64,000 nucleotides of DNA, taken from sequence record PX930851.1; one strand, written 5' to 3'. The stretch is from a phage. This document shows, one piece after another, positions 14,872 to 62,896 of this stretch; within the stretch, counting starts at the first letter, position 1, and each line of letters opens with the position of its first letter. The notes under the pieces are model-generated. The model was not told the origin of the DNA. It made no database searches and saw only the letters and a list, made by a program, of their open reading frames with translations. The position numbers and the translations under genes were made by a program.

Positions 14872-15077
14872 TACAAAAAGCCTCTTTTGAATTCGACTTG
14901 CTTTTCGCCATAATCATATCGAATCTCTGCATTAAATTCGACAGAACCATCTGCGTACATCATAAATGAATGCACAACAACTTCTGTAGACCATGGCTGT
15001 AGTTCATATTTCTTCATTACATGCCGTGAAATGATAATATCTAAATCTTCATTTGGTTTAATCCAGCGATTTAACAT
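14871..15077 (-). CDS. hypothetical small protein
   Basis: 68 aa. Confidence 0.45.
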   Translation of the reverse strand: MLNRWIKPNEDLDIIISRHVMKKYELQPWSTEVVVHSFMMYADGSVEFNAEIRYDYGEKQVEFKRGFL

Positions 15078-15147
15078 AGTGCTCTCCTCTATAAGATAAT
15101 TCTATTATACCATACTCATTTTGATATGTAAACTGCAAAAACGAAAA

Positions 15148-15169
15148 AAGGAACCCCGAAGGATTCCTT
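15148..15169 (-). terminator. UUCG-tetraloop hairpin after soc
   Basis: aaggaaccccgaaggattcctt; minus RNA stem with UUCG loop. Confidence 0.5.
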
Positions 15170-15174
15170 AAATT

Positions 15175-15432
15175 TTAACCACCAATACCTGGAGTTGGCG
15201 TAACAGTCCAAAGACCTTCATTAGCAGTGATCCATTCAGTACGCTGATTTTCTTCATATACTGTAGAATATGCTGCTTTTTCAGAAGGGAATGTCTGATA
15301 ATGAGCACCAGAAATTTTGTGAACATCAGAATAAAGAGGGAAAGCTACAGAAATTTCTTTACCCTGAATTGTACCACCATCAACTGCTTGGTCAAATGTT
15401 TTGATATTAACATAACCGCGAGTACTAGCCAT
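15175..15432 (-). CDS. soc: small outer capsid protein Soc
   Basis: 85 aa MASTRGYVNIKTF...SVAFPLYSDVHKISGAHYQTFPSEKAAYSTVYEENQRTEW; late promoter upstream. Confidence 0.85.
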   Translation of the reverse strand: MASTRGYVNIKTFDQAVDGGTIQGKEISVAFPLYSDVHKISGAHYQTFPSEKAAYSTVYEENQRTEWITANEGLWTVTPTPGIGG

Positions 15433-15448
15433 GTAATTCTCCTTTTAT

Positions 15449-15658
15449 TTAAATTACATGATTATTTATAATAAATTCTCGCGGAACGTTAAAATATCCG
15501 ATTTTAGTTAATATAACAACATCACCGTTAATAATTACCGGAGAATAATCTTCTGGAGCATTAAATTTCCAATGGGCTCTAATATTATATCCATCAGAAC
15601 CAAATGCTCGAGTAGCCGGTCTCCCGGCTTTTTGCCACGCGTAGAAATCAAATTTCAT
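15449..15658 (-). CDS. hypothetical small protein
   Basis: 69 aa. Confidence 0.45.
   Translation of the reverse strand: MKFDFYAWQKAGRPATRAFGSDGYNIRAHWKFNAPEDYSPVIINGDVVILTKIGYFNVPREFIINNHVI
15463..15470 (-). promoter_or_regulatory. T4 late promoter (TATAAATA) for soc
   Basis: exact TATAAATA on minus strand about 30 nt upstream of soc ATG. Confidence 0.65.
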
Positions 15659-15855
15659 TTTGAATGCTCTATAATTAATTTTAAGGCTTCTTCGCTGACA
15701 AAAATTTCGTCAGGACCTTCTTCTATAACCCAATCAACCATACGAAGTTGATTAGTTAAGAGCTCACATACGAGCTCCTTGTTATAATCTTTAAATAGCT
15801 GGTCAATACGTTTCTTATGGGCTTTCTTAAGCTGACGCTTATTTAAACGAGCCAT
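15655..15855 (-). CDS. hypothetical small protein
   Basis: 66 aa. Confidence 0.45.
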   Translation of the reverse strand: MARLNKRQLKKAHKKRIDQLFKDYNKELVCELLTNQLRMVDWVIEEGPDEIFVSEEALKLIIEHSK

Positions 15856-16373
15856 TAATAACCTCGGTCTTGACGAGCGAAGTTTTCAGCATTTTTCAGG
15901 TAATAAAGTTTAAAGATTTCTTCAGCTGACATTCCAAGAGCAATAAATTTATTCATGAAAAAGTGAAATTGGTCAATCAGTTCAAATTTAATTTCAAGCT
16001 GATCTTCGGGAGATAAATCTTGAATTTTCTTGGATTGCATTTCAGAATAACGTTTCTTCCAAGGTTTCCATACAGCAGAAGCTTCTTTTTCACCATTACT
16101 CATACCACCAAGAGAAGTATATAGTTCGCGAGTTTCATCTGCGATATAATCGTCTTGGTTTCGCAACCAAGCAAGAACTTCTCCTGCGGTTTCAAGTGAA
16201 TCAGGATGACGATTTGTTTCTGGTTTATCATTAGCCAAACGAATCTGTAAATGCCGCTGCATATCAAGCATAACCTGCAGTGGGTCAATATTGTGCATAA
16301 TATTCTCAGCATATGCACGATTTGCTTTATCAACACCTTCGATCAAATGAGCACATTCATTAAAGTAAGCCAT
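15855..16373 (-). CDS. 56: dCTPase gp56 (dCTP pyrophosphatase, MazG-like)
   Basis: 172 aa from ATG at 16373 (MAYFNECAHLIEG...); SD GAAAGGA; track ORF extends further upstream. Confidence 0.75.
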   Translation of the reverse strand: MAYFNECAHLIEGVDKANRAYAENIMHNIDPLQVMLDMQRHLQIRLANDKPETNRHPDSLETAGEVLAWLRNQDDYIADETRELYTSLGGMSNGEKEASAVWKPWKKRYSEMQSKKIQDLSPEDQLEIKFELIDQFHFFMNKFIALGMSAEEIFKLYYLKNAENFARQDRGY

Positions 16374-16444
16374 TATTTTTCCTTTCAATTCATGGGTTAG
16401 TAGATTAATTATACAATAAATATATAAAGCAATAAGGAGGACAT

Positions 16445-16645
16445 ATGGTACAAAAATTAATGGCACTTGTTAATGCCATAAAAGGTAATAAAAAACGTAT
16501 AGCTTTTACTATTTCTGCTATGGTAGGAATTTTACTCTGGAACTTTATTCTATCACCTGTTGCAATTGCGCATGGTATTAATATTCCAGTAGTTACTCTT
16601 GATACATTTGTAGATTTAGCATTTGCTTTAGTTGGGTTGATTTAA
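16445..16645 (+). CDS. small hydrophobic protein on the plus strand
   Basis: 66 aa, consensus SD taaggagg 4 nt before ATG; only plus-strand ORF not overlapping a minus-strand gene. Confidence 0.4.
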   Translation: MVQKLMALVNAIKGNKKRIAFTISAMVGILLWNFILSPVAIAHGINIPVVTLDTFVDLAFALVGLI

Positions 16646-17670
16646 ATCTTAGCATATTTAGATAGCCGCATTTTAGCCATCAACCCCTGGGCAATATTAT
16701 TTTTCATATATTCCATAATTTGTTCAGGGGTTGCACCTTCCTTTCTAATCATATCATTGACATCTTTTGATTTCCAGGGAGATTTATCCCAAAACATAAC
16801 CCTTTCTCCTGCATCAACTAATTTAGTCATTCGTTTGATAGTGTCAGGGTGACGAGGTTCATTATCTAAAACCCACACTCGTCTATCTTTAAATGGAACA
16901 ACTTCTAGGTCTAATTGACCACCTGTAATAGCTATACCATTTTCAATAAAAAGTGAATCTATAGGTCCTTCTAGAACATATACATCACCATCTTTAACTC
17001 GTTCAACACCGTAAATTTTTGTTGCCTCAGGATAAGCTTTAATGGTGATATATTTTTGAGGAGCATCTTTCTTTAATGCACGTCCTTGAAAAGACTCAGC
17101 TTTTCCATTAGCATTATAAATTGGAATAACAAGACGAGGCTCAGAAATTTCCTTTTTGTATGTTCCCGGTGCTATGCTATTAACTAATTTAGGCCATTCG
17201 GTTGTAAACCAAAGATATTTCCATTTATCCTTTGGAATACAACGAGCTTTTACATATTTTATAATTGGATGGTCTTCCGCCAGTTTATCTAATCTAACAC
17301 ATGACGGAAGAGATTTAATTATTTTCTTCTCAGGTTGTTTAGGAAGTTCTTTAGGTTTTTCTACTGGACGACTTTTACCTTTTTCTTTTCTTATTTCAAA
17401 GATATACTCACGATATAAATCAGGTTCAAACTCCTTTAAATATATTCCGATTGGTGCGTGATAGTTACAGTTATAACAATGAATATTTCCTTCATTATTA
17501 TCACCATAATACCATCCACGAGCTTTATTATGATCGGTTTTTGAATCTCCACAAACAGGGCATCTAAACCGCAATTTAAAAGTTGAACTATTATTTACTT
17601 GCGTGAATTTAGGTAAATGAGCTAATGCACGATACGCAAACTCATTATCAATCCAAGGTATTGATGACAT
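16642..17670 (-). CDS. 61: DNA primase gp61
   Basis: 342 aa; zinc ribbon CPVCGDS...CYNCNYH; TOPRIM-like VLEGPIDSLF. Confidence 0.9.
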   Translation of the reverse strand: MSSIPWIDNEFAYRALAHLPKFTQVNNSSTFKLRFRCPVCGDSKTDHNKARGWYYGDNNEGNIHCYNCNYHAPIGIYLKEFEPDLYREYIFEIRKEKGKSRPVEKPKELPKQPEKKIIKSLPSCVRLDKLAEDHPIIKYVKARCIPKDKWKYLWFTTEWPKLVNSIAPGTYKKEISEPRLVIPIYNANGKAESFQGRALKKDAPQKYITIKAYPEATKIYGVERVKDGDVYVLEGPIDSLFIENGIAITGGQLDLEVVPFKDRRVWVLDNEPRHPDTIKRMTKLVDAGERVMFWDKSPWKSKDVNDMIRKEGATPEQIMEYMKNNIAQGLMAKMRLSKYAKI

Positions 17671-17672
17671 TT

Positions 17673-17837
17673 TTACTCTTCTTTTTCTTTAGATTCCTCT
17701 TTCTTCTTTTTAGGAATCTGTTCAGGACCTTTATTTACTACAGCGCCTGACGTTGTTCCAGTAGAGATATTTTCAGGATTACCACCTGAATCTCCAGCTA
17801 CCATATCTTCTTTAATAAATTCTTTATATGTTTTCAT
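17673..17837 (-). CDS. small protein with capsid-targeting-sequence-like N-terminus, not in track
   Basis: 54 aa MKTYKEFIKEDMVAGDSGGNPENISTG...KKKKEESKEKEE; hand-translated. Confidence 0.4.
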   Translation of the reverse strand: MKTYKEFIKEDMVAGDSGGNPENISTGTTSGAVVNKGPEQIPKKKKEESKEKEE

Positions 17838-17883
17838 ATTAACCTCTATTCATAAAAGCATTAAAAATTTGGTCATCAATAGA
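17835..17883 (-). repeat. about 49-bp near-identical direct repeat (second copy 18193..18241)
   Basis: both copies encode SIDDQIFNAFMN(R/K)G, stop, and the next gene's ATG. Confidence 0.6.
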
Positions 17884-18195
17884 TGGCACAGTAATATTTT
17901 CTGCATCATTTAGCAAATCATTAATTTCATCAGATAGCATAACACATGTGCCTTTATTTCCTGTAATTGTTACTGCACAATTACGAACGTTTTCTTTATC
18001 AAATTTTAGGTTAATATTTTCGTAGTGAAAATCCTTTAATGCCGAATATATCTTTAAAATGAAATTGTCTTTTACTACAATAAACCCAACCTCACTATTA
18101 AAACGTGGTTCATGGAAACTGTAATAAACCTTTTCATCTATAAAATCGTATGAAATTTTTTCCATTTTTAAATATGAAAATTCAGAACTATACAT
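17839..18195 (-). CDS. hypothetical protein (61.1 position)
   Basis: 118 aa; C-terminus SIDDQIFNAFMNRG shared with next gene. Confidence 0.5.
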   Translation of the reverse strand: MYSSEFSYLKMEKISYDFIDEKVYYSFHEPRFNSEVGFIVVKDNFILKIYSALKDFHYENINLKFDKENVRNCAVTITGNKGTCVMLSDEINDLLNDAENITVPSIDDQIFNAFMNRG

Positions 18196-18196
18196 A

Positions 18197-18838
18197 TTAA
18201 CCTTTATTCATAAAAGCATTAAAAATTTGATCGTCAATAGAAACATTTACTTTAGACTGTTTTTCTGATGGTAATTCATATCCACATATTACAATTTTGT
18301 GATCAATATCAAAATACACAGAAGCAATATGATTAATGATGTTTTCAGTAAAGTCTAAATCAACATCAATATCTTTTTGACCACAGCCCAAAGGATAAAT
18401 AATGCGAGTAATTCGATTATCTTTAACAAATATTCCACCGACATACTCTGTGCTGCGTTTAAAGTTTACACGTTTCCTAAATGAAAAATATTCAGGTTCT
18501 TTATGAGCCCGACTCATAGGACACAATGAGTAGCTAGAATAAGAGATGTCAAATCCTACACCTTCAATATGAGCCAACGCGTCATGATTAAACCAATTAT
18601 AATCATATGCCAAATCCATTATATTGTAATATGTGAAAGGCACCGGATTAACATCATGTGTTGTACCTTTAAAATCTGCCCAGGCAACGATTTCGTTATC
18701 TTTAACAATTACAAAAATTGTGTCAATAAGATATCCACGGTTATTTTCATCAGGCGTTATATTATAACATTGTGCATCAGGAAATTTACCGTATTTAAAC
18801 GGCGGATTTTTGTGCATATAATAAATCATATTATTCAC
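18197..18838 (-). CDS. hypothetical protein (61.2 position)
   Basis: 213 aa; C-terminus SIDDQIFNAFMNKG. Confidence 0.5.
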   Translation of the reverse strand: MNNMIYYMHKNPPFKYGKFPDAQCYNITPDENNRGYLIDTIFVIVKDNEIVAWADFKGTTHDVNPVPFTYYNIMDLAYDYNWFNHDALAHIEGVGFDISYSSYSLCPMSRAHKEPEYFSFRKRVNFKRSTEYVGGIFVKDNRITRIIYPLGCGQKDIDVDLDFTENIINHIASVYFDIDHKIVICGYELPSEKQSKVNVSIDDQIFNAFMNKG

Positions 18839-19124
18839 CTGTGATTTCGGTTACGATATTTTTGTTATTAAAGTTTTTATCGCAATACAGAACATAATTA
18901 TACTGCATTACACCACCAGACTTAAGTTGTTTTTGCACTTCAGCTTTCATTTTAGGACGATCGCGCTCAACAATATTCATAATATCCGCTTCAATTTGAG
19001 TTTCAACTTCAGTCTGATCTGCAGTCATAGACCATTCACACAAGTCTTTATCATATCCTGCCATAGCAGGCTGAGCAGCACAAGAAGCCAAAGTAAAAAT
19101 TGTAGCAAAAATAAATTTTTTCAT
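18831..19124 (-). CDS. periplasmic protein, Spackle-like (61.3 position)
   Basis: 97 aa with signal peptide MKKFIFATIFTLASCAAQPAMA; position and length. Confidence 0.55.
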   Translation of the reverse strand: MKKFIFATIFTLASCAAQPAMAGYDKDLCEWSMTADQTEVETQIEADIMNIVERDRPKMKAEVQKQLKSGGVMQYNYVLYCDKNFNNKNIVTEITGE

Positions 19125-19184
19125 GATAATCTCCTCAGTAGTTTATGTTTATATAGTATCTCAATTTCCAACAAAAGTAAACAG

Positions 19185-19484
19185 CTATTTTAAAACTTCT
19201 GCATAATCACATGTTACAAACTGTTTCTCTAGCTTAACGATCTTACGAAAGTATCTTTTGCATTGACGAATCTGCCGTTTCGTAGGACGTACAGCAAACT
19301 TAATAAATTCCACTCGACCAAATGGAGGGCTTTCTTCTGCCGGAATATCTAACACCAATTCCCACGTATCCGCAATAAGTGCTTTGAATTGAGTATTTTT
19401 CCTGACGTTATACGGAGTAGGTTTAAATAAAACAATATGCATATTATCCTCGGCAATCCACTTCGCACACTTTCTTGTCATCAA
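19185..19484 (-). CDS. hypothetical basic protein (61.4 position)
   Basis: 99 aa. Confidence 0.5.
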   Translation of the reverse strand: MMTRKCAKWIAEDNMHIVLFKPTPYNVRKNTQFKALIADTWELVLDIPAEESPPFGRVEFIKFAVRPTKRQIRQCKRYFRKIVKLEKQFVTCDYAEVLK

Positions 19485-19626
19485 TGAAAGCTTTAACTAA
19501 TGCTTTATTAACTTCAGCATATTGAGTAGTAGCCCATTGAACGTCATCTTTCATCATTGTGATTTCTTTAGTAAACATGCTTTCATTCTTAAACCACCCC
19601 ATAAAAACTACCTTTACCAATTCCAT
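19444..19626 (-). CDS. dmd: Dmd-like antitoxin (61.5 position)
   Basis: 60 aa; position next to gene 41 and early promoter upstream. Confidence 0.55.
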   Translation of the reverse strand: MELVKVVFMGWFKNESMFTKEITMMKDDVQWATTQYAEVNKALVKAFIDDKKVCEVDCRG

Positions 19627-19655
19627 AACAATCTCCTCATTTAACCAACAAGACT

Positions 19656-19685
19656 ACTATACCATAGTCTTGTCAGCTTGTAAAC
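19656..19685 (-). promoter_or_regulatory. T4-type early promoter
   Basis: minus strand gtttac-N18-tatagt preceded by tgg. Confidence 0.55.
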
Positions 19686-21112
19686 TAAAATTTTAATTCA
19701 TTTGCCAAAGCATCTAACTGAGCTCGAGTGGATTCATTTCTTTGATAGCGATTCTGCTCAGCCTGAATCTGTTGTGAACCTGCTACTTCACTCACTTCAG
19801 TTGGAGTAGAATCTTGTTCAATTTCTACCCATTTTTGATTTCCTTTTTGAACACCCATCAAAAACTTATTCCACTTATTCTTATCACCATATCGTGATTT
19901 GATTTGCTTAATAAGTTGTTGTTCAGCAGCTGCTAGCTCCTCGGTTTCAATGACCGCAAGCATAAAATCAGCTGTTGCTGGAAGACCAGCAGATTCTGCA
20001 ATATCGCTCATGTTAACATCGGAAGAGTCCCAAGCTTGTTTACCGACCTGTGCTGCAGTCCAAAGAACAGTTTCGGTTTCAACAGCCAGAGCACGCAATT
20101 CCTCTGCGATAGCTTTAACAGTTGTGTAACTATTTTCTGAATAAACTCTAATGCGGCAAGATTTACAAATACCTAGATAGTCGACAATAATGATTGTTGG
20201 AACAAAATTCTTTTTGAGCTTTAATTCATTTAAAAGCGATCGAAATGTATTAGCGTCTGCCCCACCATTAGGATACTGTTTAACGATTAAACGACCGAGA
20301 GTAGATTTCTCACGCCATTTTTCCATTTTTCCTTTATACTCAGCGTAAGAAATATGCCCATCATCAATATCGTCAAGAGAAACATCGAGCATGTTAGCAT
20401 CAATACGTTTAGCACAGACTTCTTCTGCCATTTCCATGGAGATATAAAGAACGTTATGACCAAGCTGCAAATAATCTGCTGCTAATGAACAAAGTCCTAA
20501 TGACTTACCAACGTTAACGCCAGCCATTAAAACGTTCAGTGTTCCTGTTTCAGCTCCGCCTTTAGTAATTTTGTTTAGAATTCTGAGTTTAAATGGAACT
20601 TTACGAGCTTTATTCATATAAGATAGCCAGCGTGCTTCGTAGTCATCCATCCAATCATGACCAACGTAGCTATCAAATGAAATTGATAATGCTTGACGCA
20701 TGATGTCAGGAATAGCACCAACATCCGGCATTTTCTTATTTCGTTTTTCCGGAGGAAGCTCAGCATTAGTTTGAATTTCGATTATTTTAGACGTAGCATT
20801 AAACATCGCCCTTTGCTGAACATATTTTTCTGTTTCTTTTACTAACCAACTGTGGTCTTCTGGAGAATCGGCTAGTTTTGAAATAAGTGTTTTTACACCA
20901 GAATATTCTGTTTCAGTAAATGAACTATTTTCTAATGCAACATTTAACGCATTAATAGATGGAACGCTATGGTACTCATTAACGTGAGATTTAATTAATT
21001 TGAATGTATTTTTAGCTGGACCACTTTCAAAATATTCTGAATCCATATATGGCCAAACTTTTGAAAAATAAGCTTGATCAAATATGAGATGAGAAAGAAT
21101 AATTTCTACCAC
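19685..21112 (-). CDS. 41: replicative DNA helicase gp41 (DnaB-like)
   Basis: 475 aa; Walker A GVNVGKSLGL. Confidence 0.9.
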   Translation of the reverse strand: MVEIILSHLIFDQAYFSKVWPYMDSEYFESGPAKNTFKLIKSHVNEYHSVPSINALNVALENSSFTETEYSGVKTLISKLADSPEDHSWLVKETEKYVQQRAMFNATSKIIEIQTNAELPPEKRNKKMPDVGAIPDIMRQALSISFDSYVGHDWMDDYEARWLSYMNKARKVPFKLRILNKITKGGAETGTLNVLMAGVNVGKSLGLCSLAADYLQLGHNVLYISMEMAEEVCAKRIDANMLDVSLDDIDDGHISYAEYKGKMEKWREKSTLGRLIVKQYPNGGADANTFRSLLNELKLKKNFVPTIIIVDYLGICKSCRIRVYSENSYTTVKAIAEELRALAVETETVLWTAAQVGKQAWDSSDVNMSDIAESAGLPATADFMLAVIETEELAAAEQQLIKQIKSRYGDKNKWNKFLMGVQKGNQKWVEIEQDSTPTEVSEVAGSQQIQAEQNRYQRNESTRAQLDALANELKF

Positions 21113-56845: not shown

Positions 56846-56887
56846 ATATACCCCTTTAGTTAGATAAACCTATTTATAACTTTTGCA

Positions 56888-62422: not shown

Positions 62423-62896
62423 TTATTTGAACGATTTAACGTACTGAATAGAACCTTTACTATTCACAAAGGCAATTTTACCATTTTTATTATACATGGT
62501 AGCAGTACGCTGATAACCATAGGTTTGTTTACCAGATTGATAACCAACTAATGCAAAATTATCTTCACCCATTTTATTCTGTTTAGCGCGAATGCGTTCA
62601 TGACCATGTGCCATAAGAACCTTAGCATCACCAGTTGCAATGGATCGACGAGTTTTTTCATCTTCAACTGCATTAACAAAGTCGTCAAATGAATCAAATT
62701 TAGCATGAGATTTATTATACAATTTTCCATCTACTGCATAATTATATCCCTGTACATCCATCTCAACTTCTGTACCATCATCCAATACAGCAGTAATTTT
62801 TTGACCTTTTTTAAATTTCAAAAGATCAGTAAAAGATTCAGCAATAATTTGAGAATTAATAGCTGCTTCAGTGATAAATTCTTGATATGTTTTCAT
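62423..62896 (-). CDS. internal protein with capsid-targeting sequence
   Basis: 157 aa; N-terminus MKTYQEFITEA matches the T4 IP targeting sequence with I-x-E cleavage context; adjacent to denV/e. Confidence 0.6.
   Translation of the reverse strand: MKTYQEFITEAAINSQIIAESFTDLLKFKKGQKITAVLDDGTEVEMDVQGYNYAVDGKLYNKSHAKFDSFDDFVNAVEDEKTRRSIATGDAKVLMAHGHERIRAKQNKMGEDNFALVGYQSGKQTYGYQRTATMYNKNGKIAFVNSKGSIQYVKSFK

Follow-up and report, generated by a model that had tools for sequence, protein, structure and literature searches.

The 54-codon gene that lies directly in front of the primase gene of this phage is gene 61.1 of T4, a known gene annotated as hypothetical and functionally uncharacterised, and pairwise and profile comparisons show that its product is partially paralogous to gp23, the major capsid protein. 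What gp61.1 has of gp23 is no more than the last part of the propeptide, the cleavage site of the head protease gp21 and the N-fist, to which a basic tail is then added.

Identity and annotation of gene 61.1

In the window, i.e. the whole stretch of phage DNA analysed here (64,000 nucleotides), the ORF list and the sequence itself give a 54-codon ORF running from ATG to TAA, translated as MKTYKEFIKEDMVAGDSGGNPENISTGTTSGAVVNKGPEQIPKKKKEESKEKEE, a product of 5.9 kDa with a pI of 5.5 (Table 1). The original prediction was right in claiming an ORF at this place, and the strand, which it had not given, is the minus strand. It had also presented the ORF as unannotated, which does not hold: 61.1 is annotated in T4, T2, RB14, RB49 and hundreds of other records, and Sf23 carries it under the label 'similar to T4 gp61.1'. 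The T4 counterpart (NC_000866, 18966-19130; NP_049649.1; UniProt P39228) also has 54 amino acids and occupies the same site between 61.2 and the primase gene 61; the two proteins are identical at 52 of 54 residues, T4 gp61.1 (MKTFKEFIKE...ISIGTT...) having F4 and I26 where this phage has Y4 and T26. The gene is likewise in the same place in RB14 and Sf23, so that comparison with other T-even genomes, which had been put forward as a way of checking the ORF, supports it as conserved. The window DNA shares 99.8% identity with Shigella phage Sf23 and 95-99% with about 500 Tequatrovirus records, and the PHROG 1823 profile matches residues 1-54 of gp61.1 over profile positions 1-54 (E 7e-34).

In the literature, we found the name 'gp61.1' only in two gene tables and found neither a functional statement about it nor a paper linking 61.1 with a targeting sequence; the accession P39228 occurs in no main text searched, and a 2010 review of T4-related genomes never mentions 61.1. 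Scans of gp61.1 and its homologues against Pfam and NCBIfam gave no match. Some database records call the small protein a 'major capsid (domain-containing) protein'. This automatic label shows that annotation pipelines have noticed the similarity to gp23 without interpreting it, and the name 'major capsid domain-containing protein' overstates the kinship.

Table 1. Gene 61.1, the segments of its product and its borders, in window coordinates
Feature	Position	Strand	Evidence
Gene 61.1 CDS (54 codons + TAA)	17673..17837	-	ORF list, T4 identity, PHROG 1823 match
Codons 1-10, MKTYKEFIKE, leader of the IP CTS type ending in the putative gp21 site I-K-E|D	17808..17837	-	CTS identity, gp23 alignment
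Codons 11-38, DMVAGDSGGNPENISTGTTSGAVVNKGP, core conserved in the family, N-fist homologue (residues 66-93 of mature gp23*)	17724..17807	-	BLASTP, hhalign, hmmsearch
Codons 39-54, EQIPKKKKEESKEKEE, Lys-rich tail	17676..17723	-	Family alignments, representative sequences
GAGG, Shine-Dalgarno sequence of 61.1, inside the final codons (N-R-G-stop) of the 61.2-like ORF that precedes it	17843..17846	-	Read from sequence
ATG of primase gene 61, 2 bases past the 61.1 stop	17668..17670	-	Sequence

Homology to gp23, the major capsid protein

In a BLASTP comparison, residues 2-38 of gp61.1 align without gaps with residues 57-93 of T4 gp23 (16 of 37 positions identical, E 1e-8), the sequences around the cleavage position being KTYKEFIKE|DMVAGDSGGNPENISTGTTSGAVVNKGP in gp61.1 and QAFGSFLTE|AEIGGDHGYNATNIAAGQTSGAVTQIGP in gp23. 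Alignment of the gp61.1 family with gp23 N-termini by hhalign places gp61.1 residues 1-43 over gp23 residues 55-98 (Prob 96.3%, E 1.8e-9). Altogether, the hhalign Prob values for gp61.1 and gp23 are 96.3% and 97.5%, and the gp23 range covered, in register with the cleavage site, is 55-98 for short forms of the family and 30-99 for long forms. When all PDB sequences (177,635 distinct ones) were searched with gp61.1 profiles using hmmsearch, the only significant matches were T4 gp23 chains (6uzc, 7vrt, 7vs5, 5vf3, 8gmo, 8t9r), with E-values of 1.4e-5 for the short-form profile and 3e-11 for the long-form profile. The gp23 propeptide has 65 residues (PMC5694885) and the deposited mature gp23* chains (456 residues) start at A66, so that Glu10 of gp61.1 falls on gp23 Glu65, the P1 residue of the maturation cleavage.

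Beyond this position, gp61.1 and gp23 have in common the motif GD.G....IA.G.(T/S)SGA(V/I)...GP. The Gly/Ser/Thr segment that bears it had been described as low-complexity sequence in the original prediction, a description that has to be abandoned: the segment is the counterpart of the gp23* N-fist, it is the most conserved part of the protein, and the invariant columns of the family lie in it. The name 'N-fist' applies to gp23 residues 66-91 (PMC7136217). In the cleaved unexpanded head, gp23 residues 66-105 are disordered and directed inward, and are believed to have been in contact with the scaffolding core (PMC9546572); the capsid-length mutations A66D, A94V and G97S are located in this region (PMC9546572, PMC9958956). 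Upon expansion, the N-fist segment moves to the outer surface, where it touches four subunits and where the Soc binding site is built from it and the I-domain linkers (PMC9546572, PMC9958956).

The likeness is confined and old. The DNA segments encoding gp61.1 and its gp23 counterpart agree at 51% of positions, and at 12 of 37 third positions; such a degree of nucleotide identity points to an old duplication and rules out recent gene conversion from gene 23. The HK97-fold body of gp23 is absent from gp61.1, which has its Lys-rich tail in place of the N-arm. We therefore rejected the idea that gp61.1 is an HK97-fold protein of the Gp23 family (PF07068): there is no Pfam match, even for homologues examined up to E 10, the protein has only 54 residues, and the Pfam model begins at gp23 residue 88.

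The full gp23 junction with the N-fist was matched only in Straboviridae; with the capsid proteins of cyanophages, Ackermannviridae and Campylobacter phages, the alignment sets in only at about gp23 residue 70-85. The taxonomic spread of gp61.1 is thus that of the gp23 N-fist junction, both being found in Straboviridae and neither in cyanophages or Ackermannviridae. In the Vibrio phages VH7D and D490, gp61.1 (EE|AVVAGD) and gp23 (NE|AVVDGD) both open the post-cleavage segment with AVV; elsewhere, this segment starts with DMVAGD in gp61.1 and AEIGGD in gp23.

Structure prediction assigns no stable fold to the 54-residue protein. AlphaFold2 gives a disordered, low-confidence model (pLDDT 61, pTM 0.19) with a short helix at residues 4-11 and a Lys-rich tail that is predicted, again with low confidence, to be disordered or helical.

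A capsid-targeting-type leader

The N-terminal ten residues of gp61.1 resemble the capsid-targeting sequence (CTS) of the internal proteins (IPs). The original prediction had noted 8 of 10 identities to MKTYQEFIAE and an I-K-E cleavage context; both observations are correct, and the resemblance stands far above the background of the window. Scoring of all 1131 ATG-started peptides of at least 20 amino acids in the window against MKTYQEFIAE left only two with at least 5 identities out of 10, every other peptide having at most 4. The two are the product of an internal-protein gene at 62423..62896 (9/10) and gp61.1 (8/10). The former gene, on the minus strand and adjoining denV and e, encodes a protein of 157 residues with the leader MKTYQEFITE|AA, which a match to PHROG 3155 ('internal virion protein') covers from end to end; its length is unlike that of T4 IPII and IPIII, and the gene exemplifies the variable ip locus.

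According to a review of Black's work (PMC9026906), residues 4 and 7 of the CTS serve chiefly for targeting and residues 8 and 10 for processing, gp21 cutting after the Glu of L/I-X-E. The gp61.1 leader keeps all four key positions, namely Y4 (F in T4), F7, I8 and E10, and differs from the CTS only at positions 5 and 9, outside the key ones; its end, I8-K9-E10, corresponds to the gp21 motif and forms the putative site. Codons 1-10 also align with gp23 residues 56-65 (AQAFGSFLTE), in which F59, F62, L63 and E65 correspond to CTS positions 4, 7, 8 and 10. This correspondence leads us to the hypothesis that CTS leaders imitate gp23 56-65, with gp61.1 as an intermediate form. Leaders of the CTS-like kind (MK[TS][FY]x[ED][FL][IVLM]xE) recur in short forms from many lineages, which begin, for example, with MKTFNEFLKE, MKSFTEFVQT, MIGFKQFVEE, MIKFKDFVE or MKNFNIFYE.

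Like IPI, IPII, IPIII and Alt, gp61.1 thus has a ten-residue leader that ends in L/I-X-E, the identity to the IPII/IPIII CTS being that given above. Beyond the leader, the likeness ceases. An hhalign comparison with the window's own IP covers only gp61.1 residues 1-12, and PHROG 'internal virion protein' profiles reach the leader weakly. Unlike the IPs, gp61.1 is encoded outside the ip loci and is much smaller; its body is the gp23-like motif, whereas that of an IP is a folded effector, and IP genes are hypervariable, in contrast to the family-wide conservation of 61.1. Moreover, IPI, IPII, IPIII and Alt are processed by gp21, whereas the packaging and cleavage of gp61.1 are predictions from its sequence. 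The earlier interpretation of the ORF as a targeting-sequence-bearing peptide therefore stands as regards the key CTS residues and an I-K-E in register with the gp23 site; the gene is not a new one, though, and the element that defines it is the gp23 N-fist-like core rather than the CTS. Separately, PHROG 3966, a family of 117 residues, may be another CTS-bearing family: it matches residues 1-47 of gp61.1 at E 0.019 and, at E 9e-4, the window IP over its first 21 residues.

Conservation, forms and synteny of the family

A tblastn search found relatives of gp61.1 in 1433 phage records (Escherichia, Klebsiella, Shigella, Aeromonas, Acinetobacter, Enterobacter, Yersinia, Salmonella, Vibrio and other phages), and an exhaustive HMMER search of 1.84 billion representatives found 51 clusters, defined at the 50%-identity level, with E-values up to 1e-3. 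Protein-level conservation in 51 clusters implies that 61.1 is coding, and these comparisons show it to be a genuine conserved gene of the Straboviridae. That the ORF might be a chance one with a coincidental likeness to the CTS, as could be suspected from its shortness, its Lys/Glu content of one third and the fact that the protein has not been detected, is refuted by this conservation (1433 records, 51 divergent clusters, the PHROG match at E 7e-34), by the rarity of CTS-like peptides in the window and by gp23 being the sole PDB match; we consider it virtually impossible.

Two kinds of family members can be distinguished. Short forms, of about 50-70 residues, are those of T-even, RB49, RB69-like and Aeromonas Biquartavirus phages, and long forms, of about 120-165 residues (PHROG 2086), those of Slopekvirus, Acinetobacter, Aeromonas, Vibrio and Morganella phages. 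Long forms (e.g. KP27_034 and those of the KVP40 type) have the core, the cleavage-type site, the basic tail and the location beside the primase gene in common with short forms, from which they differ in that a folded N-terminal domain of about 100 residues replaces the CTS. This domain has a confident predicted fold (pLDDT >90) and no capsid-like match; its alignment with the whole gp23 propeptide is limited to the last ~35 propeptide residues. The idea that the short form arose by splitting of the long form, the N-terminal domain being left in 61.2 or in its 118-residue paralogue, was rejected (hhalign probability <1%).

Whatever precedes it, the cleavage-type site is retained: 71 of 72 family members have a Glu at a distance of 3-6 residues in front of the GD motif, and P3 is L, I, V, M or F in 66 of the 72, which shows that a gp21-type site is conserved family-wide. 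The basic K/R run of the tail keeps its composition throughout the family, and the acidic end is specific to T-even phages. Domain combinations extend further. In BFVD, the long-form N-terminal domain also occurs inside larger viral proteins of 387, 396, 672 and 913 residues, including a Rhizobium phage protein. In the metagenomic proteins P0037, P0053 and P0058 (149-251 residues), a second CTS-like stretch (M.E...FK.F(V/M)E) and a domain of about 100 residues come after the gp61.1 core and basic tail in the same frame; in some phages, 61.1 thus seems to be fused to another targeting-sequence protein or to lie next to one.

The location of 61.1 is constant: it lies between the helicase (41) and primase (61) genes in every lineage inspected, the order 41...61.1-61 being found in T4, RB14, Sf23, RB49, KP27, Acinetobacter phage Konradin, Aeromonas phages CC2 and SW69-9, Vibrio phage VH7D and Morganella phage MP1. 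This fixed place raises the possibility that gp61.1 is a small replication-linked protein working with the helicase gp41 and the primase gp61, for instance through binding of its Lys-rich tail to DNA or to an acidic replisome surface, its likeness to gp23 being an accident of domain capture. Early transcription together with the replication genes, the conserved basic tail and the confidently folded, non-capsid-like domain of the long forms point the same way. However, the sole detectable homology of gp61.1 is to a capsid-assembly segment, and none to replication proteins emerged from Pfam, NCBIfam or the PDB; knock-down of 61.1 is neutral (see below), although so is that of gene 61. Since head gene 40 is in the same cluster, synteny does not amount to function, and we regard a replication-linked role as distinctly unlikely.

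Expression, virion and fitness data

In time-resolved T4 omics, the 61.1 transcript is classed as 'early' and the protein is listed as 'NA', i.e. not detected (PMC9697503, Table S2), and the products of the neighbouring genes 61.2, sp, 61.4 and dmd were detected in the same infection proteome (PMC9697503). Early transcription is compatible with a head role, as ipII, ipIII and head gene 40 combine 'early' transcripts with 'late' proteins (PMC9697503), 61.1 being like ipII and ipIII in having an early transcript. No TATAAATA late promoter was found upstream of 61.1 on the minus strand before position 56871 (about 39 kb). One of only three occurrences of TATAAATA in the window lies at 15463-15470 (minus strand), about 2 kb downstream of 61.1; it is probably near soc, whose product binds the gp23 N-fist region.

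gp61.1 is not needed in laboratory hosts: when T4 61.1, whose function is listed as unknown, was knocked down by CRISPRi-ART, it was scored 'Not Fit' (score -0.84, p 0.93), i.e. without fitness defect (PMC11879866, supplement). In the list of 58 proteins found in virions of Morganella phage MP1, gp018 is followed by gp030, and gp027, the long-form 61.1 product, is absent; small cleaved peptides are easily missed in such data. gp61.1 is missing from the set of nine T4 head proteins whose gp21 sites have been mapped (PMC5694885).

A possible prohead substrate

The reading that we prefer, and hold tentatively with slightly more doubt than confidence, is that gp61.1 is a prohead-targeted substrate of gp21 that becomes enclosed and cut. 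gp61.1 would be made from early transcripts, like IPII, IPIII and gp40, and would bind the prohead scaffolding core via determinants common to the gp23 N-terminal region and the IP targeting sequences. The shell would then enclose it and the head protease gp21 would cut it after Glu10. The product would be a disordered peptide of 44 residues and 4.6 kDa, made up of the N-fist-like core and the Lys-rich tail, which would exit with scaffold fragments or remain in or on the head in small amounts. The predicted tryptic peptide of uncut gp61.1 is EDMVAGDSGGNPENISTGTTSGAVVNK, and the semi-tryptic peptide expected after a cut at E10 is DMVAGDSGGNPENISTGTTSGAVVNK. Note that the 4.6-kDa peptide could equally leave with scaffold debris via the 14-17 Å capsomer openings (PMC9546572); such an exit would fit the negative virion data and weaken the version of the proposal, put forward in the original prediction, in which gp61.1 is a packaged internal peptide.

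Several observations speak for this route: the retention of CTS residues 4, 7, 8 and 10, the recurrence of CTS-like leaders in short forms, the weak PHROG 'internal virion protein' matches at the leader, the homology to gp23 with its E10/E65 register, the family-wide hydrophobic-x-Glu, the early transcription in common with ipII, ipIII and gene 40, the taxonomic spread in common with the gp23 N-fist junction, and the fact that the gp23 segment copied in gp61.1 is thought to contact the scaffold core in the unexpanded prohead (PMC9546572). On the other side, the conserved hydrophobic-x-Glu could be an inheritance from gp23 that is not used, the long forms have a folded domain instead of a CTS, no TATAAATA late promoter lies within about 39 kb upstream on the minus strand, the protein was not detected in the T4 infection proteome, its homologue gp027 is absent from the MP1 virion list, gp61.1 is not one of the nine mapped gp21 substrates and its knock-down is neutral; a replication-linked role, too, would agree with the fixed place by the helicase and primase genes. 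If the mechanism holds, gp61.1 would join the CTS-bearing, gp21-processed prohead proteins. It resembles gp67, gp68 and gp22 in its small size, charged tail, predicted gp21 site and possible transient residence in the prohead core; these small or helical proteins are cut by gp21 and largely expelled, and, unlike 61.1, their genes lie in the late head-gene cluster. Homology of gp61.1, long form included, to gp22 or gp68 was tried and rejected (hhalign probability 0.1-0.2%).

The same data can be read in another way, according to which gp61.1 is never packaged and acts in the cytoplasm as a mimic or decoy: an early-made free copy of the gp23 junction and N-fist would bind whatever recognises that segment, thereby tuning head assembly or blunting host defence, the candidate recognisers being gp21, gp22, GroEL/gp31, Soc and a host capsid sensor. 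The early transcript class and the lack of a nearby late promoter fit this possibility, as does the fact that conservation is highest in the N-fist-like core and not in the leader. The predicted intrinsic disorder is what would be expected of a linear-motif mimic, dispensability in a laboratory strain is usual for accessory or counter-defence genes, and the N-fist contributes to the Soc binding site. Furthermore, the gp61.1 core co-varies, albeit weakly, with the gp23 junction of its own lineage (permutation p 0.03-0.07 for seven lineages, some of them paired at genus level), a signal on which we do not lean. What a mimic or decoy leaves unexplained is the near-universal hydrophobic-x-Glu and the recurrence of CTS-type leaders, whose known role is prohead targeting; as regards Soc as the partner, to our knowledge it is absent from several lineages that have 61.1, and no link to defence came to light in this analysis. 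Altogether, a cytoplasmic mimic or decoy seems rather unlikely.

Returning to the prohead-substrate reading, a broader version can be formulated. According to it, gp61.1 would be the tenth T4 prohead protease substrate and a living intermediate between the gp23 propeptide junction and the IP CTSs; CTS leaders would work by imitating the core-docking segment of gp23, and the freed N-fist-like peptide would dock in N-fist/Soc-type shell sites or on packaged DNA, throughout the Straboviridae. Taken as a whole, this chain of propositions is unlikely to be correct in all its parts. The question matters because T4 head assembly is among the best-studied morphogenetic pathways and because the CTS serves in engineering as a tool by which capsids are loaded with foreign proteins. 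Should gp61.1 be targeted and cut as its sequence predicts, the lists of gp21 substrates and of prohead core components would be incomplete. In that case, the action and origin of the CTS would also be explained as imitation of the scaffold-contacting N-terminus of the capsid protein, and gp61.1 would be a natural minimal probe of the interactions of the gp23 N-fist region, where the capsid-length mutations map. If gp61.1 is not packaged, an early-made mimic of a capsid N-terminus in >1000 phage genomes still calls for an explanation; either way, 61.1 is a widely conserved member of the helicase-primase block.

Neighbouring genes and signals

The genes on the minus strand follow the order 41 - dmd - 61.4 - sp - 61.2 (213 residues) - 118-residue 61.2 paralogue - 61.1 - 61, the primase encoded directly downstream of 61.1 having 342 residues. 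The original prediction had called the upstream neighbour a 61.1-like gene; this 118-residue ORF is instead a truncated paralogue of 61.2 (BLASTP, E 3e-8) and not of 61.1. The two 61.2-type genes stand in tandem on the minus strand (118 residues, PHROG 4122, 17839-18195; 213 residues, PHROG 3781, 18197-18838), an arrangement also present in RB14 and Sf23, whereas T4 has 61.2 alone upstream of 61.1. Both genes end in a common C-terminus, SIDDQIFNAFMN(R/K)G, and hence offer the same junction and the same Shine-Dalgarno sequence. The plus-strand ORFs that overlap 61.1 are short Phe/Leu-rich antisense readings.

The packing around 61.1 is tight, the stop of the upstream ORF and the 61.1 start being one base apart, and at the other end (Table 1) translational coupling of 61.1 to gene 61 is possible. 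In its strongest form, such coupling would make 61.1 a leader ORF with a role in cis, its translation bringing ribosomes to a weakly initiated primase gene and the peptide itself being irrelevant. The 2 nucleotides between the 61.1 stop and the gene 61 start, and the lack of a strong Shine-Dalgarno sequence in front of gene 61, are in line with this explanation. Across genera, however, it is the amino acids that are conserved and not the DNA or the spacing, 61.1 and the primase gene being separated by gaps of about 40-140 nucleotides or by two intervening genes in Acinetobacter, Aeromonas, Vibrio, KP27 and RB49 phages, and the homology to gp23 would be left unexplained, which makes a pure leader function very improbable.

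A scan of window positions 15000-21000 against Rfam (E up to 0.1) matched no family. A MotA-box-like TGCTTTT at 17860-17854 (minus strand) lies 12 nucleotides upstream of a TAATAT hexamer at 17841-17836, which overlaps the 61.1 start codon; together (17836-17860), they could form a middle promoter. The record of phage Lutter has a 'promoter' annotated at the same place and also at the duplicated copy upstream of the 118-residue ORF. If they do, the transcripts would begin inside 61.1 and serve gene 61 only. Further downstream, between genes 56 and 61, where T4 has dam, the window carries on the plus strand a hydrophobic ORF of 66 residues (16445-16645); the same ORF, a predicted membrane protein of the RB32ORF030w type, is annotated in RB14 and Sf23.
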